Source: an uncultured bacterium
GTDB lineage: Bacteria > Krumholzibacteriota > Krumholzibacteriia > JACNKJ01
Length of the DNA stretch: 64,000 nt
Reading direction: 5' to 3'
Assembly: GCA_964344565.1 (NCBI GenBank)
Contig: CAYFNT010000011.1
Span: 5,622-69,621 of the forward strand
Under the pieces are notes generated by a model. The model saw nothing but the letters and a program-made list of their open reading frames with translations. It had not been told where the DNA came from and made no database searches. The position numbers and the translations under genes are program-made. This document shows, piece by piece, positions 4,103 to 61,526 of the stretch (position 1 is its first letter; the number at the start of each line of letters is the position of its first letter).

Positions 4103-4986
4103 CAATCGTCCTCCGCGAAGGCGGGCACGGCGGTGAGCGAATGCTGGAAGCCCAGCCGCTCGAAGAGCGATTCGGTGTCGCCTCGCCGCGCGCCTTTCCA
4201 ATTCAGGTCGTCCATGGTCGCGTCCAGATCCATGTCGCATCGTAACGCGACGAGCTCCCGGCAGGTTTCGGCCAGTTCGCGATGTTCTTCGAGTTTCGCG
4301 CCGAGCTTCTTCGCGCCGCGGATGGGCAGGTCGGCGACCTTGTCGAGACTGGCGTAGATGCCGTCCAGGCTTCCCAGCTCGTTCAGCAGGGCGCTGGCCG
4401 TCTTGGGTCCCACGCCCGGGATGCCGGGGATGTTGTCGCTGCTGTCCCCGCACATGGCCAGATAGTCCACCATCTGTTTCGGCTCCACGCCGAAGTGCTT
4501 GGGGACCGTGCGCACGGTGAAGCGCTTGCTGCGCGAGGGATCGATGACCCGGGTACCCTCGTCCACGAGCTGGGCCAGATCCTTGTCGCCCGAAAGGATC
4601 GTCACCTCCAGCCCCTCGGCGCGAGCCCGTGTGGCCAGGGTGGCGATGATGTCGTCGGCTTCGTGGTTCTCCACCTTGAAGCGCGCGAGGCCGAGAGCGT
4701 CCACGATGCGTTCGCAGTGCTCGAACTGGGGAAGCAGTTCGGGTGGCGTCTCTCCGCGATTGGCCTTGTAGTCGGGATAGATCTCGTTGCGGAAGCTCTT
4801 GGGCCCCGCGTCGAAGACCACGGCCACCCGCTCGGGCTTCTCGCGGTAGAGGAAACGCAGCAGGAAGTGCAGGAAGCCGAAGCTCGCGTTGGTGGGCGTG
4901 CCGTCGGGGGCGTGGAGTTCGTCCTCCGAATAGAAGGCGCGAAAGATCCAGGCCATGGCGTCGATGAGGAAAATGGGTTGGGACAT
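4102..4986 (-). CDS. 5'-3' exonuclease, FEN/Pol I N-terminal-domain family (stand-alone)
   Basis: MSQPIFLIDAMAWIFRAFY..., ...HEADDIIATLA..., ...GDKDLAQL..., ...GIPGVGPKTA... (H3TH). Stop TGA overlaps the patatin ATG by 1 nt. An alternative start 60 nt upstream (5046) is possible. Confidence 0.85.
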   Translation of the reverse strand: MSQPIFLIDAMAWIFRAFYSEDELHAPDGTPTNASFGFLHFLLRFLYREKPERVAVVFDAGPKSFRNEIYPDYKANRGETPPELLPQFEHCERIVDALGLARFKVENHEADDIIATLATRARAEGLEVTILSGDKDLAQLVDEGTRVIDPSRSKRFTVRTVPKHFGVEPKQMVDYLAMCGDSSDNIPGIPGVGPKTASALLNELGSLDGIYASLDKVADLPIRGAKKLGAKLEEHRELAETCRELVALRCDMDLDATMDDLNWKGARRGDTESLFERLGFQHSLTAVPAFAEDD

Positions 4987-7844: not shown

Positions 7845-7913
7845 GGGCTTATGCCTCCCGTACTAGTGTTACAATGAACTAGTGTATTAGGACAATCTGG
7901 ATATGTCAAGGTG

Positions 7914-7962
7914 GAACTGTGAACTGAGAACTGAGAACTATGAACTGAGAACTGAGAACTTC
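7914..7962. repeat. Heptamer tandem array (7 units: GAACTGT GAACTGA GAACTGA GAACTAT GAACTGA GAACTGA GAACTTC); left arm of an inverted pair
   Basis: Read directly from sequence. It is the inverted complement of the array at 8413..8461. Confidence 0.9.
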
Positions 7963-8030
7963 AAGATTGGGCGAGCTGGCCCATCTTTGGCTGAGTAACA
8001 AGAAGCCATTAATTGGGAGAGCCGACTTAA

Positions 8031-8399
8031 ATGAGGAATTACAAAGAGTATCCGGTCTGGCAACAGTCGTTGGAACTCGTGGAATGTGTCTACAGGGTAA
8101 GCGAGTCCATGCCCCGAAAGGAAACCTTCGGGATTCAAAGCCAGATCCGGAGGGCAGCCGTATCCATATCTGCAAACCTCGCTGAAGGAGCCGGGAGGGA
8201 TACAGAGTCAGAGTTTCGGCGCTTCATCGACATTGCCTTGGGATCGATCAACGAGGTGGAGACGCTGACCCTGATAGCAGGAAAACTCGGGTACTTTGGT
8301 CTGGAGCAGGTTGATCAGCTAAATCGAGTGCTCGTCGAGGTGCGAAAGCAGCTTATCGGTCTGCACAAGAGATTGCGGCCAAAACGAAAGGCGAGCTAA
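8031..8399 (+). CDS. Four-helix-bundle protein of the 23S rRNA intervening-sequence (IVS) / DGR Avd-like family
   Basis: YKEYPVWQQSLELVECVYRVSESMPRKETFGIQSQIRRAAVSISANLAEGAGRDTESEFRRFIDIALGSINEVETL closely matches the TIGR02436/PF05635 consensus (...DLxVWQKAxxLxxxIYxxTxxFPKEExYGLxSQIRRAAVSIxSNIAEG...). Bounded by inverted heptamer arrays. Confidence 0.85.
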   Translation: MRNYKEYPVWQQSLELVECVYRVSESMPRKETFGIQSQIRRAAVSISANLAEGAGRDTESEFRRFIDIALGSINEVETLTLIAGKLGYFGLEQVDQLNRVLVEVRKQLIGLHKRLRPKRKAS

Positions 8400-8412
8400 G
8401 AGCTCGCCCTCC

Positions 8413-8461
8413 TGAGTTCAAAGTTCACAGTTCTCAGTTCACAGTTCACAGTTCACAGTTC
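8413..8461. repeat. Heptamer tandem array, right arm; reverse complement reads GAACTGT x3, GAACTGA, GAACTGT, GAACTTT, GAACTCA
   Basis: Read directly from sequence. About 43/49 identity to the revcomp of 7914..7962. Overlaps the acyl-CoA dehydrogenase stop codon by 9 nt. Confidence 0.9.
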
Positions 8462-9670
8462 AGCAAGATCCACTTCTCGCTGCACCTCGTTGGGGATGTA
8501 CTCCTCGAGATGCTTCAGATCCCGCGCTCCCTTGAGCACGTGGCGGGCGGTGACCATGCGCTGCACCTGGTTGGTGCCCTCGTAGATCTGGGTGATCTTC
8601 GCGTCGCGCATGTACTTCTCGATGGGATAGTCCTTCATGAAGCCGTAGCCGCCGAAGATCTGCACCGCGTCGGTGCTCACGCTCATGGCCGTGTCGGTGG
8701 CGAAGAGCTTGGCCTGGGCGGCCAGCTTGCTGATGTTGCTCGCGCCCATGTCGATGTTGCGGGCCGCGGCGTAGACCAGGTAGCGGGCCGCCTCCACCCG
8801 GGCGCTCATGTCGGCGAGCATGCCCTGGATCATCTGGAAGCTGCCGATGCTCTGGCCGAACTGCTTGCGCCGGTTGGCGTAGACCGCGGCGTAGTCCAGA
8901 GCGCCCTGGGCGAGCCCGACGCCCTGGCCGGCCACGCCGGGACGGGCGCGGTCGAGGGTCATCATGGCCTGCTTGAATCCCTGGCCCGTCTTGCCGCCGA
9001 GAAGGCGATCCTCGGGCACCTCGCAATTCTCGAAGTCGAGTTCCACCACGGGCACCGCCCGGATGCCCATCTTATCCTCGATCTTGGCGATGGAGAATCC
9101 GGGATCGCCCTTCTCCACGATGAAGCCCGAGATGCGCGAGCGCTGGCTCTCCGGGTCGGTCACCGCGTAGACCGTGTAGATCTCGGCGATACCTCCGTTG
9201 GTGGTCCACTTTTTCTCACCGTTGATGGTCCAGCCGCCGGCGCTCTTCTCGGCCCGCGTGCGGAGACTGCCCGCGTCACTTCCAGCGAACTTCTCGCTGA
9301 GCCCGAAGGCGATGAGCTTCTCGCCACGGGCGATCTGCGGCAGGTAGTGCTTCTTCTGCTCCTCCGTGCCCGAGAGGATGATGGGGAAGCTGCCCAGGGC
9401 GTTCACCGCGAAGGCCACGCCGATGCCGCCGCAGGCCTTGCTGAGCTCTTCGGTGACCAGGCAGAGATCCAGTACGCCGGCGCCCTCGCCGCCGTATTCC
9501 TTGGGGATCCAGACGCCCAGGAGTCCGGCCTCGGCCATGGCGTCCTTCACCTCCCAGGGATACTCCTGCATCTCGTCGTACTTCGCGGCCAGGGGCCTGA
9601 CCACCTTCTCGGCGATCTCGCGGGCCTTGTCTCTCCACTTCAGGTTCTCTTCGGTAAGGAAGGGCGTCAT
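8453..9670 (-). CDS. Acyl-CoA dehydrogenase
   Basis: 405 aa. ...EYGGEG...GSDAGSL...KKWTTNG...YEGTNQVQRMVTAR is canonical ACAD. Carries a ~25-aa C-terminal tail that ends inside the heptamer array. Confidence 0.9.
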   Translation of the reverse strand: MTPFLTEENLKWRDKAREIAEKVVRPLAAKYDEMQEYPWEVKDAMAEAGLLGVWIPKEYGGEGAGVLDLCLVTEELSKACGGIGVAFAVNALGSFPIILSGTEEQKKHYLPQIARGEKLIAFGLSEKFAGSDAGSLRTRAEKSAGGWTINGEKKWTTNGGIAEIYTVYAVTDPESQRSRISGFIVEKGDPGFSIAKIEDKMGIRAVPVVELDFENCEVPEDRLLGGKTGQGFKQAMMTLDRARPGVAGQGVGLAQGALDYAAVYANRRKQFGQSIGSFQMIQGMLADMSARVEAARYLVYAAARNIDMGASNISKLAAQAKLFATDTAMSVSTDAVQIFGGYGFMKDYPIEKYMRDAKITQIYEGTNQVQRMVTARHVLKGARDLKHLEEYIPNEVQREVDLAEL

Positions 9671-12800: not shown

Positions 12801-14543
12801 TTCTACCGCAACTGGAACCTGCCCTGCGCGGGCGGCGCGGACAATCTCATCGCGGTCTTTTGGGACGACCTCTATCAGCAGGCTTCGAACATCGTGAGCA
12901 GCTGGTACGACGAGGCCAACCACCGCTACATCATCCAGTGGGACAACCTGAAGAACCGCGCCACCAGCGCCTTCCAGGACTTCGAGCTGATTCTCCTGGA
13001 CCCGGCCTATCACCCGACGAGCACGGGCGACGGCATCCTGCTCATGCAGTACAAGACCGTGAACAACACCGACAGCACCAACGGCTACGGCACGGTGGGC
13101 ATCCAGAACAAGGACAGGACCGACGGTCTGACCTACACTTACTGGAACTCCTATCCGAGCAGCGCCGCCACACTGACCACCGGCCGGGCCATCGCCTTCA
13201 TGCCGGTGGCCTCGGTGCCTCTGCCCGCCTGCGTCGTGACGCCCGAGTCCATCTCGAAGATCCTGCCCCCGGACGGCACGAGCCTCGAGATGCTGCACGT
13301 GAGTAACCAGGGCGAAGAGGGTTCGGTGCTGAACTACAGCCTCGAGATCATCGATCCGAATCTGCCGCGCAGCGTGGCGGGCTCCTGGCTCTCGCTGGAT
13401 CCGTCCACCTACGTGGTGGGCTCCACGGTGGACTTCGGAGTCACCGTCTACAACGCCAGCACCGACGTGGAATGGCTCAGCGAAGTCACCCTCGACTTCC
13501 CGCCCGGGGCCGTGGTCAACAGCGGCACCGATCTCGTCGGTCCGAGCGGCAGCCTCTCCTTCAGCGGAACCGGCGACGGCGCGATGATCACCTGGTTCGA
13601 TCCGGACGGCGGATGGGGGAACATCTACGACGGCGAGACCGCCACTGCGAGCATCAACGTGAGCTTCCCCGACGTGAGCGGCGACCTGCCCCTCACCTAC
13701 GGAATCCAGGGCGACATCTACGGCGACGATCCCCACTACATCGAGGACGTCTTCACCCTCGTCATGGACGGTCCCGCGGTCCACGTGCTCGCGCCCAACG
13801 GCGGCGAAGTCTGGACCGTCGGCGAGCAGCAGACCATCAGCTTTAGCGCCGGCGGCGGATCGGGTCTGGTGGACATCTACCTGCGCCGCGGAATCCTGGG
13901 CAACTGGGAGCTTCTCGCCAGCGACGTGGACGCGGGTTCGGGCAGCTTCCAGTGGAACGTCGACGCGCCCGGCAACATGAACTGCAAGGTGAAGGTGGCC
14001 GACAGCGGCGATCCCTCGGTCTTCGACGAGAGTGACGACTTCTTCACCATCCAGAACTCGCTGGACTGGATCTCCCTGGACATCACCGAGGGGCAGCTCC
14101 AGGCCGGCGAGACCGACGACATCCGCGTGACCCTCGACGCCACCGACATGGTGGAGGGCACCTACGAGGCGGAGGTACTCGTGGTGAACAACGCGGGGCC
14201 CTCCATCGCGGTGCCGGTGACCCTCATCGTCAACGAGACGGGCACCGAGGTGGAAGTGGTTCCGGCCAGCGTCTTCCTCTCGAGGAACCATCCCAACCCA
14301 TTCAACCCGAAGACCTCGATCAGCTTCGGTCTGCCCGAGTCGAAGAACGCGCGGCTGGCCGTCTACGATCCTGCGGGACGTCTGGTGCGCATGCTCGTGA
14401 ACGGTCCTCTGGCCGAGGGCATCCATGCCTACGAGTGGGACGGCCGGGACGAGTCCGGTGAAGCGGTGGCCTCGGGCGTCTACTTCGCCAAGCTGAACGC
14501 CGGCGAGATCAAACTGCATCAGAAAATGGTGCTCTTGAAATAG
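9840..14543 (+). CDS. Secreted multidomain gingipain-like cysteine peptidase (C25 family) with Ig-like/CARDB-type middle region and T9SS/FlgD-Ig-like C-terminal sorting domain
   Basis: 1567 aa. Signal peptide MRSSITLILTLISLCLFTLGAAA. C25 propeptide and catalytic region (YLLIYDNT..., ITLVGDASGY..., HIGRLSV..., FAIIVTCDTGSF). C-terminus HPNPFNPKTSISFGLPESKNARLAVYDPAGRLVRMLV...YEWDGRDESGEAVASGVYFAKL. Confidence 0.85.
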   Translation: MRSSITLILTLISLCLFTLGAAAEVQLHRLDLEGGAAATKPEFRILSQDESGVRLSFVLDALNLEKFEADGELFDALSIPGGGMRGADGHPGLPVISKLIALPAGSSARVKVLSREEQVLPDLRLFPVQPDGAERFVMDEGAYLTPSLDAAPDVEIGEPGMMRELSVSALRVNPVRYDPVSREARVATSMEIEIEFASEAVEAAEFIPESFHLLYKDMVLNYEDSGYYREGVTEVGPGTYLLIYDNTAGVLTRLAPLIEWREKQGYKVVAVSTDETGGNNWQVEDYIDDFYATADPPLEHITLVGDASGYITVPCFFESVSGYGGEGDHYYSTIVGGDVLSDVHIGRLSVTSTTELEDVVSKLVTYETSPPISDPGWFTRAGLTGDPSSSGITTIYVNQWLKEQLLQHNYTQVDTIWGGNFLSAMTASLNQGLSVFGYRGYWHMSGMSSAHIMALGNQKELPFAIIVTCDTGSFASDANCRSEAFFRAPNGGGVASVGTATIGTHTRYNNCYYMGVWHGAINGEDHRTGSAHTRGKYELYHNYQISQPNTVEVWSMWNNLMGDPVTQLWSAYPEDLTVVHPASLPTGVGSVPVTVSNPGGPLEGARVALFKDGDIRVTGYTDAAGQVNLPIEAAGSGTLYVTVMSHNHMPYLGSLSLGSVSAYAAAENQLIDDDMSGDSQGNGDNRVNPGEAIELSISLRNLGTSTANNVSATLSSNDPYVTVVDDTETYGNIASGAEVWCAEDFDVFIANDAPGGYAIELDLTASDGFQSWTSLVELDVQSAAFTYEDFTFAGGNPEPGESGTLSVQIRNDGNISGTAISAELSSVSPWIVINDPSGGFGSLPIGGSGENTSDPFSITVTSDCVPGHQAAFAMELTFNDGATDVVNFSFTVGSAGAGDPTGPDSYGYYAVDNTDTGYEYAPVYDWVEVNPNQGGPGTDLGLGDFGWEQDDTRTVDLPFEFSYYGEPYDKISICSNGWVAMGETEMNFYRNWNLPCAGGADNLIAVFWDDLYQQASNIVSSWYDEANHRYIIQWDNLKNRATSAFQDFELILLDPAYHPTSTGDGILLMQYKTVNNTDSTNGYGTVGIQNKDRTDGLTYTYWNSYPSSAATLTTGRAIAFMPVASVPLPACVVTPESISKILPPDGTSLEMLHVSNQGEEGSVLNYSLEIIDPNLPRSVAGSWLSLDPSTYVVGSTVDFGVTVYNASTDVEWLSEVTLDFPPGAVVNSGTDLVGPSGSLSFSGTGDGAMITWFDPDGGWGNIYDGETATASINVSFPDVSGDLPLTYGIQGDIYGDDPHYIEDVFTLVMDGPAVHVLAPNGGEVWTVGEQQTISFSAGGGSGLVDIYLRRGILGNWELLASDVDAGSGSFQWNVDAPGNMNCKVKVADSGDPSVFDESDDFFTIQNSLDWISLDITEGQLQAGETDDIRVTLDATDMVEGTYEAEVLVVNNAGPSIAVPVTLIVNETGTEVEVVPASVFLSRNHPNPFNPKTSISFGLPESKNARLAVYDPAGRLVRMLVNGPLAEGIHAYEWDGRDESGEAVASGVYFAKLNAGEIKLHQKMVLLK

Positions 14544-14548
14544 AGGTT

Positions 14549-14571
14549 GGGGAGGGATGAGCTCCCTCCCC
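14549..14571. repeat. Perfect palindrome GGGGAGGGA-tgagc-TCCCTCCCC (copy 1 of a twin hairpin element)
   Basis: Read from sequence. Sits 6 nt after the peptidase stop. Confidence 0.8.
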
Positions 14572-14593
14572 TCCTTCCGCTTCGAAAGTCAGT

Positions 14594-14630
14594 CGGGGAG
14601 GGACTCATCCCTCCCCGATCTCTATTTTCA
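14594..14630 (+). terminator. Rho-independent terminator: CGGGGAGGGA-ctca-TCCCTCCCCG followed by a U-rich tract (atctctattttc)
   Basis: Second copy of the same palindrome, followed by a T-run. Terminates the peptidase transcript. Confidence 0.6.
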
Positions 14631-16064: not shown

Positions 16065-16090
16065 ACTTTCGGGACAGGCCTGAAAGAAAA

Positions 16091-16112
16091 CCCCCGGCCC
16101 TCGCCGGGGGAT
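16091..16112. terminator. Bidirectional hairpin terminator CCCCCGGC-cctc-GCCGGGGG flanked by an A-run and a T-rich tract
   Basis: Lies between convergent genes, immediately before the heptamer array. Confidence 0.5.
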
Positions 16113-16115
16113 TAT

Positions 16116-16220
16116 CTGGTGACTGGAGACTGGTGACTGGAGACTGGCGACTGGAGACTGTCGCCTGGCGACTGGCGACTGGTGACTGGAGACTGGCGAC
16201 TGGAGACTGTCGCCTGTCGC
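16116..16220. repeat. 15-unit heptamer tandem array, GACTGGN family, with a duplicated 35-bp higher-order block
   Basis: gactgga gactggt gactgga gactggc gactgga gactgtc gcctggc gactggc gactggt gactgga gactggc gactgga gactgtc gcctgtc. Ends exactly at the stop codon (16221-16223) of the minus-strand gene. Confidence 0.9.
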
Positions 16221-17327
16221 CTATTCCCCCAACAGCGCCCGCCTGATCGACCCGTCCAGCATGCCCGGCATGGATGCGTACTTCATGAAGGCGCCCTTGC
16301 CCGCGTCCCAGAAAAACTGGTCCATGCGGAACATCTCCTTGGCGCTGCGCACCTGGATCTCGTCGCCGTCCAGGTAGATGAGCACCTCGATGGGAAAGGC
16401 GCAGACGTGATCGAGGCCCGGCGAGCGCCAGTCGCCCTCGGCGCGCTTCATGCCGGCGATGTGCATGGCTAGGGCTTCGGTGCGCGGCCGCGTGATGCCC
16501 AGCAGGATGGCCTTGCCCGGCACCTCCTTGCGCGCGGCGAGCTTCCACTTGAGATCCGCGTCAGGATCGGGAGTCCAGCGGTATTTCAGATCCTTTCCAT
16601 CGGGAGTGAAGGCCGCCAGGTTCGCGGTGATGCGATCGGCCAGCGCGTTCATCTGCAGGGTGGCGTCGTCCACGACGGCTTCGGAATGGAGGAGGGGGAA
16701 CTGACCCTCGCTGCGGAAGTAGGTCATGGGTCCGACCATCATGAACATGTCCTTCTTGCCTTCGCGCAGACGGTCCCGATCGCGAAGGGGAGGCATGGGC
16801 TCGTTCGCGGTGGGCTTGCCGAATGCGCTGCTTACCCGGTCCCGAATCCTTCCGGCCAGGGCCGCGGCCTGGCCCGCCATGGCGGCGTAGAGGGTCTCGT
16901 CCTCCAGATCGTTGCCCACGATACGGGCCAGTGTTTCCGGCTGCAGCATGGTGATCCGGAGGCCCCCCGGTTCCTCGCTCAGACCCAGGCGCATCATGCC
17001 GGCGGCCGCGTACTTGGGATGCAGATCCGCGAGAGCGTTCAGGTAGGCTTCGTCGATGAAGACGATCAGATAGCCGCGCCGGCCGTCCCGATCGCCTGCG
17101 TCCTCCCGCACGTGGTCGGGGGGCGTCACCGGCCCCCGATGGAGGAGTTCGAATCCCTCGTCGTACTCCAAGGCTTCGCTGAGGGTCAGCACGGCCGCTT
17201 CCAGGGTCATGCCCTCCGGAGCGAAGCCGAGATTCTCGTAGATGCCGTAGAGAGGCCCGTCCGCCAGGGCGGCGAAAGCGAAAATCATGAAAACCATGGC
17301 GAGGCGCACGATCATGATGTCCTCCAT
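16221..17327 (-). CDS. Hypothetical secreted protein
   Basis: 368 aa. N-terminal signal peptide (MIVRLAMVFMIFAFAALA). Coding-like composition; no family recognised. Confidence 0.6.
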   Translation of the reverse strand: MEDIMIVRLAMVFMIFAFAALADGPLYGIYENLGFAPEGMTLEAAVLTLSEALEYDEGFELLHRGPVTPPDHVREDAGDRDGRRGYLIVFIDEAYLNALADLHPKYAAAGMMRLGLSEEPGGLRITMLQPETLARIVGNDLEDETLYAAMAGQAAALAGRIRDRVSSAFGKPTANEPMPPLRDRDRLREGKKDMFMMVGPMTYFRSEGQFPLLHSEAVVDDATLQMNALADRITANLAAFTPDGKDLKYRWTPDPDADLKWKLAARKEVPGKAILLGITRPRTEALAMHIAGMKRAEGDWRSPGLDHVCAFPIEVLIYLDGDEIQVRSAKEMFRMDQFFWDAGKGAFMKYASMPGMLDGSIRRALLGE

Positions 17328-44957: not shown

Positions 44958-46186
44958 AGGGGCCGTCCAAGGTCTTCGTGAGCGTGGCCGAGGCGCTTTC
45001 GCTCATCGAATCCCGGCTTCCCGCCCCCACGCGGGAGCGGATCGCAGTGCCGGATGCGGCCGGCCGCGTGCTGGCCGAGGAGATCAGCTCGCCGGAGCCC
45101 CTTCCCGCCTTTTCCAACAGCGCCATGGACGGCTACGCCCTTCGGGCCGTCGACGTCGCCGGCGCCCAGCCCGAGACGCCCGTGGACCTGCCCCTCGCCG
45201 GCGAGATCGCCGCGGGAGAAGTGCCGCCGGCGGACTGGCCCGCGGGCACTTGCCTGCGCATCCTCACCGGCGCGCCGGCGCCCGAAGGGGCCGACGGCGT
45301 GGTGCCGGTGGAATCCACCGAGGAGTTGGATGGCGCCATTCGCTTCTACGCCGACCTCGACGCGACGGGCAGCAACATCAGGCCCGCCGGCGAGGACGTG
45401 AGGGCCGGCGACCGTCTGCTCGCGCCCGGCCATCTGATTCGTCCGGCCGAGATCGCACTTCTCGCAGCTCTGGGAATCCTGGAAATCGAGGTGACGCGCA
45501 AACCCCGCGTGGGTTTTATGGCCACCGGCGACGAGTTGCTGTCCCCGGGCGAAACGCCTCGCCCCGGCGCCATCCGGAACAGCAACACGCCCATGATTCT
45601 CTCCCTGCTCGCGGATCTCGGACTGGAGGGCGTGGATCTCGGCGTGGCGCCCGACGACGAGGCCGGCCTGCGAACCAAACTGGAACCCGCGCTCGCCGAC
45701 TGCGACCTGCTCATCAGTTCCGGGGGCGTTTCGGCGGGCCGATACGATCTGGTGGGGAAGGTGCTCGAGGACCTCGGCGCCGAATGGGTCTTCCACAAGA
45801 TCGCCCAGCAGCCGGGCAAGCCCCTGGCCTTCATGACCTGGCGCGGCAAGCCCATTTTCGGACTGCCCGGCAATCCCGTATCGGGATTCTTCACCTTCTG
45901 GTACTACGCTGCGCCCGCAATCCGGAAGATGATGGGCCTGACCGACGCCCATCCGCGGCACGTCATCGCGCGCCTCAAAGGCGAAATCGCCGGAAAGCCG
46001 AAGAAGGCCTTCTTCGGGCGCGCGCAAACGACGTGGGTGGGAGATCACTACGAAACCGAACCGCGGCCGCCCCACGGAAGCCACGTATTGAGCAGCCTGA
46101 CCCGGGCCAACAGCTTCATCATTCTGGAACCGGGAACGGGACAGCTTGGCAGCGGCGACCCGATTCGCGTGGCGCTCCTGGACTGA
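44954..46186 (+). CDS. moeA: Molybdopterin molybdenumtransferase
   Basis: ...PAFSNSAMDGYALR..., ...GDELL.PG...IRNSN..., ...ISSGGVSAGRYD..., ...GLPGNPVS... Overlaps moaC by 4 nt. Confidence 0.85.
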   Translation: MKGPSKVFVSVAEALSLIESRLPAPTRERIAVPDAAGRVLAEEISSPEPLPAFSNSAMDGYALRAVDVAGAQPETPVDLPLAGEIAAGEVPPADWPAGTCLRILTGAPAPEGADGVVPVESTEELDGAIRFYADLDATGSNIRPAGEDVRAGDRLLAPGHLIRPAEIALLAALGILEIEVTRKPRVGFMATGDELLSPGETPRPGAIRNSNTPMILSLLADLGLEGVDLGVAPDDEAGLRTKLEPALADCDLLISSGGVSAGRYDLVGKVLEDLGAEWVFHKIAQQPGKPLAFMTWRGKPIFGLPGNPVSGFFTFWYYAAPAIRKMMGLTDAHPRHVIARLKGEIAGKPKKAFFGRAQTTWVGDHYETEPRPPHGSHVLSSLTRANSFIILEPGTGQLGSGDPIRVALLD

Positions 46187-46190
46187 TGCC

Positions 46191-46302
46191 TGGAGCCTGG
46201 CGACTGGCGACTGTAGACTGGAGACCGGAGACTGGAGCCTGGCGACTGGCGACTGTAGACTGGAGACCGGAGACCGGAGACTGGAGCCTGGAGACTGTAG
46301 AC
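46191..46302. repeat. 16-unit heptamer tandem array (TGGAGAC/TGGCGAC/TGTAGAC/CGGAGAC, the same GACTGGN family as 16116..16220) with a ~49-bp higher-order duplication
   Basis: Fills the whole gap between the moeA stop (46184-46186) and the DUF4230 stop (46302-46304). Confidence 0.9.
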
Positions 46303-46997
46303 TACTCCTCCAGCTCCCCCAAGGGCACCTCGCTGAGCACCGGCACGGGCTCCTCCGCGTCGAAGTCCACGGCCAGCCTTTCGACGCCGTAACCGCGGGC
46401 GATGAGCTCGAGGGTCTGCCTCGCCGATTCCTCGACCTTGGAGCGCAGGGCCCTGGCCTGATCCACGGCGAGCACGTGCACGTCCTCCTTGGCGCGCTCC
46501 TTCAGCTGGTTCTTCACCTTCACGTCGAAGCGGTCGCCCAGAACCTTGCTCAAGAGCCCGGGCAGCGCCCAGCTGAGCAGTTCGCCCTGCTGTTCGTCGT
46601 AGAAGGACAGGTCGCGCAGGCGGATCTCCGGCTTCACCGGCGGCATGCTGATGCGATGCAGACCCGCCTCCTCGCGTATGCCGAAGGCCGGATCGCGCAG
46701 ATCGTATCGGAAGTCCACTTCGAACTCGAAAATCATGACCATCTTCTTGGGGCCGAGCAGCCAGCTCCAGTACTTCTCGCCGGATTCGCCGAAACGATGG
46801 TCCTCGGCGCTCACGATCTCCTTGGCCAGGATGCGAAACACCGACAGCTCGCCGATGGACTGCATCTGCTTGATCTGCCGACCGATGCTCACGCGGGCCT
46901 CCCGCGGCGTCTTGCCCCGCCGGCTCATCCGCCAGAGGACGCCGAAGGCCGCCGCGACGACGAGCCCGAATATCAGTCCGAATCCAAATCCGCTCAT
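46302..46997 (-). CDS. DUF4230-like membrane-anchored protein
   Basis: N-terminal TM MSGFGFGLIFGLVVAAAFGVLW, then a pattern consistent with DUF4230 (...ELSVFRILAKEIV...FEVDFRYDL...). Confidence 0.6.
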   Translation of the reverse strand: MSGFGFGLIFGLVVAAAFGVLWRMSRRGKTPREARVSIGRQIKQMQSIGELSVFRILAKEIVSAEDHRFGESGEKYWSWLLGPKKMVMIFEFEVDFRYDLRDPAFGIREEAGLHRISMPPVKPEIRLRDLSFYDEQQGELLSWALPGLLSKVLGDRFDVKVKNQLKERAKEDVHVLAVDQARALRSKVEESARQTLELIARGYGVERLAVDFDAEEPVPVLSEVPLGELEE

Positions 46998-54144: not shown

Positions 54145-54238
54145 GGATCGTCCTTAGGGATTCGAGTCCTGGGGCCGGGCAGGCTTAGATTAGGGCAGCG
54201 AGGTCGGGAAATCAAGCCCTGCCCTTCACCACCCCCCG

Positions 54239-54307
54239 GCCTCGGGCAGCGAGCCTCGGGCTGTGGGCCTCGGGCCCCGGGCCTCGGGCTGCGGCCTCGG
54301 GCCACGA
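54239..54307. repeat. Five tandem copies of a 14-bp unit GCCTCGGGC+N5 in a divergent promoter region
   Basis: gcctcgggcagcga gcctcgggctgtgg gcctcgggccccgg gcctcgggctgcg gcctcgggccacga. Confidence 0.85.
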
Positions 54308-54364
54308 GCACCTTGCCTAGTGCCCCGGGCTTCACTAGACTCGGCGGGTCTTGAAAGGAGTCCC

Positions 54365-60442: not shown

Positions 60443-61526
60443 TGGTTCCCGCCAGGCCCGCCAGGGTCTCGGCGCTGATCTCCTCGCCATCCTGTCCGCC
60501 GATCAGCACGGCTTCGTCGCCGCGACGGGCCTCGGGTATGTGGCTGAGGTCCACGAGGGTGAGGTTCATCATCACCCGGCCGCGGATGGGAGCGCGCTTG
60601 CCGCGCACCAGGGCCCAGGCGCCGCCGAGTCCGCGATCGTAGCCGTCGGAGTAACCCACCGGCAGCACGCCGATGCGGGTCGGCGCTTCGGTCTTCCAGC
60701 TGCAGCCGTAGCCCACGTAGCTGCCCGCGGGCAGATCCTTCACCTGGATGATCCGCGCCTTCCAGGTCATCACCGGTTTCAGATCCAGATTGTTGCGCCC
60801 CTCGGCCCGCGCGCTCACGAGGGTTTCGCGGCTGGGCCAGTGTCCGTAGAGCGAGATGCCCACGCGCAGCAGGTCGCCCCGGGTATCGGGGAAGAGGATG
60901 CCGGCCGCCGAACAGGACTGGTGCAGCATCTCCGGCCGCAGCCCACCGTCCCCGAGTCGAGTCACCGCCGCCTCGAATCGACGCATCTGCTCGAGGGCGT
61001 AGCTGTGATCGGTGGTATCTTCGATGTTGGCGAAATGGCTGTGCACGCCTTCCACGCGGATGTGCTCGCAGCCGCTCGCCCGGGCGGCGAGTTCGTCGAG
61101 ACTCTCTTCGGGGAATCCCTGCCGATTGACGCCTGTCTCGACCTTGAGGTGGATGGGAATCCGGGCCCCGAGCTCCGAGCCCCGGGCCTCGAGTTCGTCG
61201 AGGCCCTCGAAATCGAAGACGGTGAATCGCGCGCCGGCCTCGAGGAGTTCGGGGAGCATCTCGGGCGGCGACCAGGACAGGATCAGCGTCTTCAGGTCAT
61301 GATCCGGATTCGAATCGGCAAGGGCCAGCGCCTCTTCGGGGGAGTGCACGCCGAACCATCGCTGCCCTTCTTCCGCGAGTATGCGCGAGACCTCGGCCAG
61401 TCCGTGCCCGTAGGCGTTGGCCTTGAGCACGGGCAGCAATTCGGCCGGCCCGGCCAGGTCCTTGAAGATGCGGTAGTTGTTCAGAAGGCTGGATCGCGAG
61501 ATCTCGATCCAGGTGGCTCTATTCAT
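60384..61526 (-). CDS. alr: Alanine racemase
   Basis: True start MNRATWIEIS at 61524-61526. VLKANAYGHG (PLP Lys), ...GISLYGHW..., ...VMMNLTLVDL... The upstream 327 codons of the track ORF are antisense to dusB. Confidence 0.9.
   Translation of the reverse strand: MNRATWIEISRSSLLNNYRIFKDLAGPAELLPVLKANAYGHGLAEVSRILAEEGQRWFGVHSPEEALALADSNPDHDLKTLILSWSPPEMLPELLEAGARFTVFDFEGLDELEARGSELGARIPIHLKVETGVNRQGFPEESLDELAARASGCEHIRVEGVHSHFANIEDTTDHSYALEQMRRFEAAVTRLGDGGLRPEMLHQSCSAAGILFPDTRGDLLRVGISLYGHWPSRETLVSARAEGRNNLDLKPVMTWKARIIQVKDLPAGSYVGYGCSWKTEAPTRIGVLPVGYSDGYDRGLGGAWALVRGKRAPIRGRVMMNLTLVDLSHIPEARRGDEAVLIGGQDGEEISAETLAGLAGTINYEILARAASHLHRRAAD

Follow-up and report, generated by a model that had tools for sequence, protein, structure and literature searches.

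The subject of this analysis is a 64-kb window (64,000 nt) from an uncultured bacterium of the Krumholzibacteriota (contig CAYFNT010000011.1, positions 5,622 to 69,621), in which a cassette of 548 nt lies between the promoter region of a gntR gene and the end of an acyl-CoA dehydrogenase (ACAD) gene. The cassette carries a gene for a four-helix-bundle (4HB) protein between two inverted arrays of heptanucleotides. Comparison with other genomes gives good support to the view that it is a non-rRNA copy of a widespread three-part module, in which a gene of the PF05635 family is nested in inverted arrays of ~7-nt units, with the G-rich side 5' of the gene. The same module, when found inside 23S rRNA, is evidently the intervening sequence (IVS) that bears an open reading frame (ORF). 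Two further elements of this reading are likewise well supported by the comparative data: the arms appear to come from a dispersed family of heptanucleotide arrays with ACTG-core units that the genome itself carries, and the cassette appears to change, by divergence or exchange, at 5-10 times the rate of its flanks, with breakpoints that fall inside the arrays. Taken as a whole, i.e. the identity of the module, its behaviour as a hypervariable cassette and the mechanism proposed below, we consider this explanation probable, if well short of certain. The cassette and its borders comprise the following features:

7881..7909, minus strand: gntR promoter-like site, with -35 box TTGACA at 7909-7904, a 17 nt spacer and -10 box TACACT at 7886-7881; the conserved left boundary
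7914..7962, no strand assigned: left arm, ~7 tandem heptamers GAACTGW, with G>C on the ORF coding strand, which is the majority polarity
7963..8030, plus strand: 5' spacer of 68 nt, with a Shine-Dalgarno (SD)-like GGGAG (8015-8019) and, right before the ATG, an in-frame TAA (8028-8030)
8031..8399, plus strand: 122-aa 4HB gene, PF05635 / TIGR02436, from profile matches, an AlphaFold2 (AF2) model and Foldseek
8386..8413, minus strand: 12-bp hairpin across the 4HB stop codon (8397-8399), -20.1 kcal/mol, z -2.5, followed by UUUCGUUUU on the minus strand
8413..8462, no strand assigned: right arm, ~7 heptamers WCAGTTC, reverse-complementary to the left arm
8453..8461, minus strand: end of the ACAD gene (Glu-Leu-stop), within the outermost right-arm units

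Every test that could be applied to the sequence and its predicted structure places the window protein in the PF05635 / TIGR02436 family. Profile searches give E 8e-33 and 113.3 bits for PF05635 (cutoff 33.8) and E 3e-32 and 110.9 bits for TIGR02436 (cutoff 24). The AF2 model has four helices and a pLDDT of 95.5, and its best match in the PDB is XCC0516 (2GSC; Foldseek TM 0.93, 40% identity, phmmer E 1.7e-23), followed by BT_0352 (2RLD; TM 0.80) and, at only 12% identity, bAvd (PDB 4DWL; TM 0.76). The fold also matches that of Avd in the ribonucleoprotein of a diversity-generating retroelement (DGR), 8UB7. Both 2GSC and 2RLD contain 5 chains, and XCC0516 is described as a crystallised pentameric member of PF05635 (Lin 2006, as cited in another source). 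The window protein is expected, by homology, to be a toroidal homopentamer, because its 40%-identical relative XCC0516 is pentameric. Nine residues (Q38, R41, S45, A51, E52, G53, G55, S72 and E75) are invariant across 25 homologues from many phyla, and lie in the motifs QIRRAAVSI..N.AEG.GR and GS..E.E. Their conservation in an otherwise very fast-diverging protein suggests that they form a ligand-binding or catalytic site.

Both arms of the cassette stand out from the rest of the window. Tandem Repeats Finder (TRF) reports period-7 arrays at 7914-7960 (6.7 copies of GAACTGA, 87% matches) and 8415-8462 (6.9 copies of AGTTCAC, 92% matches), and a repeat search returns 7914-7960 and 8415-8461 as inverted arms of 47 nt that are 85% complementary, with 454 nt between them. 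The two-unit pattern GAACTGWGAACTGW, with at most 2 mismatches allowed, occurs 12 times in the window and always within the two arms, against an expectation of 0.61; none of 100 shuffles reaches 12. When positions 7900-8475 are folded as RNA, the two arms are paired in the minimum free energy (MFE) structure (-224 kcal/mol, z -6.6, none of 100 shuffles as good), and each arm folded alone has no more structure than shuffles (z +1.5 and -1.2). The predicted long-range stem would be lengthened, in the window allele only, by GGGCGAGCT at 7969-7977, which is complementary to 8401-8409 and would, when paired with it, compete with the local hairpin.

The borders of the cassette coincide closely with signals of the neighbouring genes. 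The left arm starts 4 nt from the -35 box of the gntR promoter-like site, and a GTCAAG motif directly before the left array, found in all orthologs, marks the end of the conserved flank. In the same leader and promoter region of gntR, a direct repeat ACTAGTGT (7862-7869 and 7878-7885) is conserved in all orthologous loci and is likely to be a GntR operator. On the other side, the right arm supplies the ACAD stop codon (8453-8455) and the last two ACAD codons (8456-8461). The hairpin at 8386..8413 plus UUUCGUUUU looks like a terminator for ACAD transcripts, placed inside the cassette past the right arm. It was not recognised by a consensus terminator scan; the codons for the Lys-rich C-terminus of the 4HB protein lie on its A-rich coding strand. 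Neither an rRNA, tRNA or tmRNA nor any Rfam family at gathering score was found in the whole window.

The connection to rRNA comes from a plasmid search, which recovered a PF05635 ORF inside a large subunit (LSU) rRNA gene (RF02541, 2160 bits) of Azospirillum lipoferum 4B (L231; numbers with the prefix L are our handles for loci). Because it lies inside an LSU rRNA gene, L231 is, by its sequence context, a true ORF-bearing 23S rRNA IVS. Its arms are heptameric (AGAGGAC, GGATGAC, AGAGGAC, GGAGGAC, plus their reverse complement), are predicted to pair with z -9.5, and have the same polarity as those of the window. Among the 80 genome loci described below, none showed a 23S rRNA context in a crude motif test. 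The IVS of Coxiella carries GACAGAT heptamers, in variable copy number, upstream of its ORF, and RNase III cuts it at the first repeat within the stem (PMC4990558). Outside rRNA, PMC4692102 describes the GGGAATC arrays of Xanthomonas and the GGGGAYT arrays of Nostoc as solo arrays and inverted pairs; according to its supplement, array 15, which is of the GGGAATC type, overlaps the annotated start of XCC0516. The authors do not mention the PF05635 gene family in the text read, and no paper linking PF05635/TIGR02436 genes with heptamer arrays was found in the literature searched.

The initial annotation had observed the window correctly, and its interpretation stands up in part to these comparisons. 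The ORF it assigned to the IVS four-helix-bundle family scores far above the cutoffs of both family profiles, the arm identity of ~43/49 that it gave is close to the measured 47 nt at 85%, and the long stem that it predicted around the ORF forms in silico. Its placement of the cassette outside any rRNA gene, between the gntR promoter region and the ACAD stop, with the last ACAD codons in the right arm, is confirmed by the coordinates, and the likeness it saw to the layout of IVSs is borne out by the heptamer arms of L231 inside LSU rRNA.

To describe the pattern across the family, 80 loci from GTDB species of many phyla were retrieved with a profile built from 25 homologues. Within 300 bp of the ORF, nearly all arrays with at least 3 copies have a period of 7 (34 arrays in 23 of the 80 loci), with 0-3 arrays of periods 4-6 and 8-12, and the density of period-7 arrays is 0.45 per kb near the ORF vs 0.07 per kb farther off. 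Bracketing was scored as the best gapless inverted repeat between the 320-nt zones on either side of the ORF, with a threshold score of 16, and 280 positions shifted by 1.1-1.5 kb served as controls. Inverted repeats with a score of at least 16 bracket the ORF in 34 of 75 unrelated PF05635 loci vs 1 of 280 controls (Fisher p 2e-25), and their arms have a period of 7 in 19 loci, 14 in 10 and 8 in one, with none in the remaining 4. Of the loci with arrays on both sides of the ORF, 12 have them in inverted and 3 in direct orientation. G outnumbers C on the coding strand of the upstream arm in 34 of 38 loci (506 G vs 178 C; p 6e-7), a pattern to which the window conforms, and the median gap between arm end and ORF is 45 nt upstream. 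A period-7 array is present in 28% of the intergenic regions adjacent to the ORF vs 12% of the others in the same loci (odds ratio 2.9, p 0.001, with these other regions being a rough control). The array unit differs from genome to genome; in 13 of 24 cases, arrays farther off in a locus have the unit of those beside the ORF, as compared with 2.6% for pairs from different loci.

The same architecture is found on plasmids, where tblastn returned 21 records, of which 17 are from cyanobacteria such as Nostoc, Calothrix and Anabaena. Cyanobacteria are reportedly the taxa in which heptamers of the short tandemly repeated repetitive (STRR) type were first described. Plasmid pNe_5 of Nostoc edaphicum has TAGGGAG x9, the gene and TCCCTAC x5 between two ribonucleotide reductase genes, and plasmid1 of Calothrix brevissima has GGGTGTA x4, the gene and CTACACC x4. 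Plasmids alpha and gamma of Nostoc sp. PCC 7120 (L226 1549-1600 and L227 1555-1600) encode identical 4HB proteins, WP_010994075.1, from genes that have only a downstream C-rich array (CTCTGCC x5) and are flanked by transposase genes (ISL3, IS200/IS605 and ISAzo13-like); both genes may have lost their upstream arm.

The arms are not private to the cassette. Period-7 arrays with an ACTG core start at 7914, 8415, 16113 and 46181 of the window, the last two being solo arrays:

16113..16222, no strand assigned: ~15 heptamers GACTGGA/GACTGGC/GACTGTC, ACTG core, filling the gap between convergent genes
46181..46303, no strand assigned: ~17 heptamers CTGGAGA/CTGGCGA/CTGTAGA, ACTG core, between convergent genes

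Both, with GACTGGA/GACTGGC/GACTGTA variants, fill the whole gap between the convergent genes and touch both stop codons, with no 4HB ORF nearby. A scan of metagenomes for at least 4 units of the cassette type, G[AG]ACTG[AT], matched at least 120 loci. Among the 120 listed, a PF05635 ORF lies within 400 bp of only 2 (L135 and L171, whose arm polarity is reversed), so that the arrays are not markers of the cassette. The cassette arms thus belong to a dispersed, mostly solo family of heptanucleotide arrays, and the association is therefore one-sided as far as these sequences go, the gene usually being accompanied by arrays and the arrays usually lacking the gene. The listed matches also include four inverted pairs without an ORF (L134 835-976, L206 1196-1413, L211 6193-6342 and L213 988-1125), in which (GGACTGA)4-8 and (TCAGTCC)4 enclose 85-140 bp of unrelated sequence; their arm polarity is that of the window cassette, and they are like the "inverted pairs" described in Xanthomonas (PMC4692102). 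All the other listed matches are solo.

Other repeats in the window were recorded alongside these. A GC-rich hairpin, CCCCCGGC...GCCGGGGG, precedes the first solo array at ~16083-16110, and GC-rich period-7/14 arrays of a different unit (GGCCTCG, CCGAGCC) occur at 54237-54309 and 61161-61193. Directly after a gene for a 1567-aa C25-peptidase-like protein, a 33-nt inverted repeat (82% complementary, 24-nt spacer, 14538-14627) forms a large terminator-like hairpin with no relation to the heptamers.

The behaviour of the cassette over time can be followed at the same site in related uncultured genomes, whose gntR/Band_7 neighbourhoods were retrieved by exact-protein look-up. Six cassette alleles occupy one position next to gntR (window, L093, L090, L091, L225 and L004), with arm periods of 7, 7, 14, 6, 6 and 7, respectively:

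Window: arm unit GAACTGW
L093: units GGACTGA/GAACTGA, the arms being a perfect 31/31 mirror that includes the order of unit variants
L090: 14-mer GGGAACTAYCGGCA, ~2.5 copies on the left (1665-1700) and ~11 on the right (2150-2310)
L091 and L225: hexamers ACTTGN / NGTTCA (L091 5230-5290 and 5700-5760; L225 60-110 and 505-545)
L004-L009 group: GGACTGA x5 + GAACTGA x4, upstream only, with the right flank rearranged

All units keep a GAACT or GACTG core while the spacing changes, and the two arms are complementary within each locus, yet different between loci. Flanking proteins are 88-99% identical between genomes, vs 49-62% for the 4HB protein. Nucleotide identity to L093 is 95-97% in the flanks and 40-75% between ~7935 and 8450, with the outermost two or three units on each side still conserved; the 5' spacer is unalignable between alleles, and its identity to L093 is 40%. 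Synonymous divergence (dS) of the 4HB gene is saturated (1.6 to infinity), while that of the flanking genes is 0.14-0.39 between the closest genomes and reaches 0.9 between more distant ones. Because its dN/dS is 0.15-0.22, the 4HB protein is, on these sequence estimates, under purifying selection though deeply diverged. In every allele the GC content at third codon positions (GC3) of the 4HB gene (46-63%) is 19-40 points below that of its neighbours (67-90%), and GC content across the window cassette drops to 0.46-0.56, vs 0.60-0.71 in the flanks. The alleles nevertheless have much in common, namely the Lys-rich tail, the hairpin and a start context in which YTAA precedes ATG or GTG and an SD-like GGAG lies 5-12 nt upstream; equivalents of the hairpin and T-run are found in every allele still facing ACAD (L090, L091, L093 and L221). 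The closest database homologues of the window 4HB protein all come from this gntR-ACAD site.

Three relatives with an ACAD in the same 90% cluster lack the 4HB gene (L217-L220, L221 and one JGI contig). The site is a 126-bp intergenic region with an intrinsic terminator in L217-L220, and measures 193 bp both in L221, where only the hairpin and three right-arm units remain, and in the JGI contig. In L217-L220 (the site being 4222-4347 in L217) CTGGAGA x2.4 follows right after the ACAD stop, this being the unit of the window solo arrays and not of the cassette arms. None of these provides a clean empty site from which insertion junctions could be read, as the C-terminus of ACAD has diverged too far in L217-L221, and cassette remnants are left in one of them. 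We read the cassette as a dispensable, hypervariable unit, in which alleles would be exchanged by recombination between arrays or mutation between the arrays would be unusually fast; we do not read the six alleles as repeated transposition.

The arrays also interfere with assembly. The short-read contigs L094-L096 end ~20 nt past the ACAD stop, i.e. inside the array, L007 has a run of N inside the array (4152-4249), and the distance from gntR to the ORF ranges from 206 to 361 nt between assemblies of one population. Since arrays break and distort assemblies in this way, metagenome copy numbers are unreliable, and cassettes of this type are under-called in metagenomes.

A possible mechanism can be outlined by analogy with IVSs. 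If both arms are on one transcript, they would form a stem of ~47 bp with a mismatch about every seventh base. RNase III could cut this stem as it does in the Coxiella IVS, and cleavage would release or inactivate the 4HB message. The pentamer might, more speculatively, bind the repeat arrays as single strands with one 7-nt unit per protomer, which would link the gene to the repeats beside it and perhaps also to the solo arrays, and homology between arrays would let cassettes recombine or be lost. The ring proteins HutP, which recognises UAG every 7 nt, and TRAP are known to read tandem RNA repeats. A bolder version of the proposal, in which toroidal PF05635 pentamers are the cognate readers of bacterial heptanucleotide arrays, as single-stranded RNA or DNA, at one unit per protomer, and the cassette is the "master copy" of the genome's heptamer family, much as a REP-associated tyrosine transposase (RAYT) gene is for repetitive extragenic palindromic (REP) sequences, we regard as doubtful.

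Several observations weigh against the module reading or its mechanism. A consensus scan found no sigma-70-like promoter on the plus strand for the 4HB ORF. One might lie within the 68-nt spacer, and the mRNA would then lack the left arm. Mismatches between arms comprise 43 G.U, 37 A.C and 73 others; with no excess of G.U, there is no RNA-specific signal of selection on the stem. Covariation of protein and unit is significant but weak (Mantel r 0.18-0.19) and confounded by phylogeny, and is not used here as evidence of specificity. The L004-L009 ortholog group has no right arm and about half of the PF05635 loci have no arms, and so the arms are not essential to the protein. Conversely, 118 of the 120 listed metagenome arrays have no PF05635 ORF within 400 bp, and the 12% of other intergenic regions in PF05635 loci that carry period-7 arrays imply that the genomes bearing this family are heptamer-rich overall. 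Finally, the Coxiella IVS protein is apparently not made in vivo (PMC4990558).

The most sceptical view of such observations is that they reflect coincidence, the heptamer arrays being generic intergenic filler and the 4HB gene an accessory gene in a repeat-prone gap, with no functional link between them. The predominance of solo arrays (those 118 of 120 loci, and two in the window), their frequency in other intergenic regions, the one-armed L004 group and the CTGGAGA x2.4 that remains at the empty site of L217 are all in keeping with this. It is nonetheless very unlikely in our estimation, given that bracketing is seen in 34 of 75 loci vs 1 of 280 controls, polarity relative to the ORF is strong (34 of 38), ORF-side arrays are inverted in 12 cases vs direct in 3, and the arms change in concert between alleles; the same layout is also found inside rRNA, where no generic intergenic process applies. 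Ranked second among the explanations, though still unlikely, is that single arms are outward-facing insulators or terminators, in which outgoing RNA that is C-rich, G-poor, unstructured and rut-like could recruit Rho, with the symmetry as a by-product. Because the 5' arm is G-rich in 34 of 38 loci, a transcript leaving the cassette in either direction would carry a C-rich arm at its 3' end; single arms fold no better than their shuffles (z +1.5, -1.2), and solo arrays lie between convergent genes, abutting stop codons. Arrays are also reported to be under-represented between divergent genes (PMC4692102). Left unexplained are the mirrored order of unit variants (31/31 in L093) and the presence of a single protein family as cargo. 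The window unit is, moreover, only slightly biased to C (2 C to 1 G), the cassette already holds a hairpin and U-tract for ACAD, and the polarity is opposite in L135 and L171.

Mobility offers a different account, in which the cassette is a non-autonomous or passenger element similar to a miniature inverted-repeat transposable element (MITE) or a REPIN, with arms recognised by a recombinase encoded elsewhere. The presence or absence of the cassette among relatives, together with a decayed copy, its low GC and GC3, and the ORF-less inverted pairs with the same arms and unrelated 85-140 bp spacers (L134, L206, L211, L213) would all fit; several cyanobacterial copies adjoin insertion sequence (IS) elements or an integrase, and horizontal transfer of the IVS has been reported in Leptospira, in a reference known here through its citation in PMC4990558. 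However, the cassette is present as a single copy in 64 kb, without a target-site duplication, none of the genes called over ~3-6 kb around the orthologous loci encodes a transposase or integrase, its closest protein homologues are all from this site, and six alleles at one site with a common start context, Lys-rich tail and hairpin fit better with descent in situ or allelic exchange. We therefore hold mobility of this kind to be quite improbable. A DGR remnant, i.e. an orphan Avd left after loss of the reverse transcriptase (RT) and of the template and variable repeats (TR/VR), is the least credible of the explanations considered and can be given hardly any weight. The fold is bAvd-like (TM 0.76) and there are weak matches to Avd models (PF22296, NF033474 and, at E 1e-6, PHROG 3206), but the Avd scores are far below the cutoffs of 40 and 80 bits, identity is 40% to the non-DGR pentamer XCC0516 vs 12% to bAvd, neither an RT in the orthologous neighbourhoods nor a TR/VR-like repeat in the window was found, and the gene is apparently under purifying selection in an architecture of its own that is kept across phyla.

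The module reading is thus preferred, and assignment of the cassette to established classes was considered separately. As an rRNA IVS it has every structural feature, including terminal inverted repeats that form a predicted stem around the ORF (47 nt, 85%; z -6.6), except the defining location, since it is flanked by gntR and ACAD and has no Rfam match at gathering score; the same absence of Rfam matches across the window sets aside any described RNA motif. It is not a DGR, as Avd models score below cutoff (NF033474 19.6 bits, cutoff 80; PF22296 20.3 bits, cutoff 40), and as no RT appears among the precomputed Pfam calls for the ~3-6 kb of called genes at six orthologous loci, the rest of the window not having been scanned protein by protein. 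Nor is there a TR/VR-like direct repeat in the 64-kb window, where the only long ones are the heptamer arrays and the others are of 30-45 nt and at chance level. A MITE or insertion sequence was rejected on the lack of a target-site duplication (no direct repeat flanks the arms), of a second copy of the cassette in the window and of a transposase in the neighbourhood, where neither transposases nor integrases were seen in the flanking genes called at the orthologous loci. There is no PADLOC match that would indicate a defence system.

The rejection of a canonical DGR agrees with the initial annotation, and its remaining claims were sustained in part. The portable module that it envisaged finds genuine support in presence and absence among relatives, divergence, low GC and sharp boundaries in the arrays; it does not extend to a transposition signature or a second copy in the window, and the six alleles, all at one site, are homologous over their whole length. 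The arms are not specific to the cassette, as they belong to the mostly solo array family, and the L004-L009 group has only the upstream one. The search that it proposed for empty sites yielded the gene-less L217-L221, too diverged to give an exact junction. As to its suggestion of an undescribed type of element, ORF-bearing IVSs with terminal repeats, the Coxiella heptamers (PMC4990558) and the Xanthomonas arrays (PMC4692102) are all published. Within the literature searched, three things nevertheless appear to be undescribed: that PF05635 genes generally sit between inverted heptamer arrays in a fixed polarity, that this arrangement holds outside as well as inside rRNA, and that the cassette behaves as a hypervariable, dispensable unit.

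ORF-bearing rRNA IVSs have been known for about 30 years with the role of their protein unexplained, and the same is true of the excess of heptanucleotides in bacterial genomes, such as the cyanobacterial STRRs and the GGGAATC arrays of Xanthomonas. Our comparisons indicate that the gene for the IVS protein and the heptamer arrays belong together, inside and outside rRNA, and through this link both questions become testable in cultured organisms (Xanthomonas campestris with XCC0516, Nostoc, Calothrix and Azospirillum lipoferum). Saturated dS and a GC3 deficit of 19-40 points beside neighbours that are 88-99% identical point to allelic exchange or local hypermutation bounded by repeats. If the pentamers do read the arrays, this would explain why heptamers are the over-represented long simple repeat in bacteria, the role of the orphan "IVS protein" family and the origin of ORF-bearing rRNA IVSs.

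Among known systems, the Avd of DGRs resembles the window protein in its four-helix-bundle fold (TM 0.76) and in that related family members form homopentamers, and its place in a ribonucleoprotein (8UB7) is a precedent for nucleic-acid binding by this fold. It differs in sequence (12% identity, Avd models below cutoff) and in the RT and TR/VR, none of which was found at the window cassette, and we know of no Avd genes that are flanked by heptamer arrays. The REP/RAYT system (REPtrons and REPINs) is closer in layout, as a gene is flanked there by inverted copies of a dispersed, genome-specific short repeat. By analogy, its repeat is also like ours in being dispersed as singlets and ORF-less inverted pairs. 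RAYT is, however, a Y1 (HUH) transposase with a known catalytic motif, whereas the 4HB protein has no recognised catalytic domain, and REPs are single palindromes and not tandem arrays. With the dispersed heptanucleotide arrays (STRR; PMC4692102) the window shares intergenic 7-nt tandem units with a genome-specific sequence and an occurrence as solo arrays and closely spaced inverted pairs with copy numbers that vary between relatives; those arrays are presented as G-quadruplex-forming or fingerprinting repeats, without a link, in the text read, to PF05635 or IVSs, and those of the window form the arms of a gene-containing cassette.

The ORF-bearing 23S rRNA IVSs of Leptospira, Coxiella burnetii, Brucella and Azospirillum lipoferum 4B differ from the window cassette in several ways. 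The cassette lies between protein-coding genes and not in helix 25 or 45 of 23S rRNA, would need its own or a neighbour's promoter, has arms that overlap the neighbour's stop codon and holds the neighbour's terminator-like hairpin; RNase III excision, which has been demonstrated for IVSs, is here proposed by analogy. The two are nevertheless alike in their protein family, PF05635, in size (548 nt vs 428-444 nt for the Coxiella IVS), in having terminal inverted repeats that pair into a stem with the ORF in its loop, in building that stem from tandem heptamers (L231, and GACAGAT in Coxiella; PMC4990558), and in the G-rich arm 5' of the ORF.

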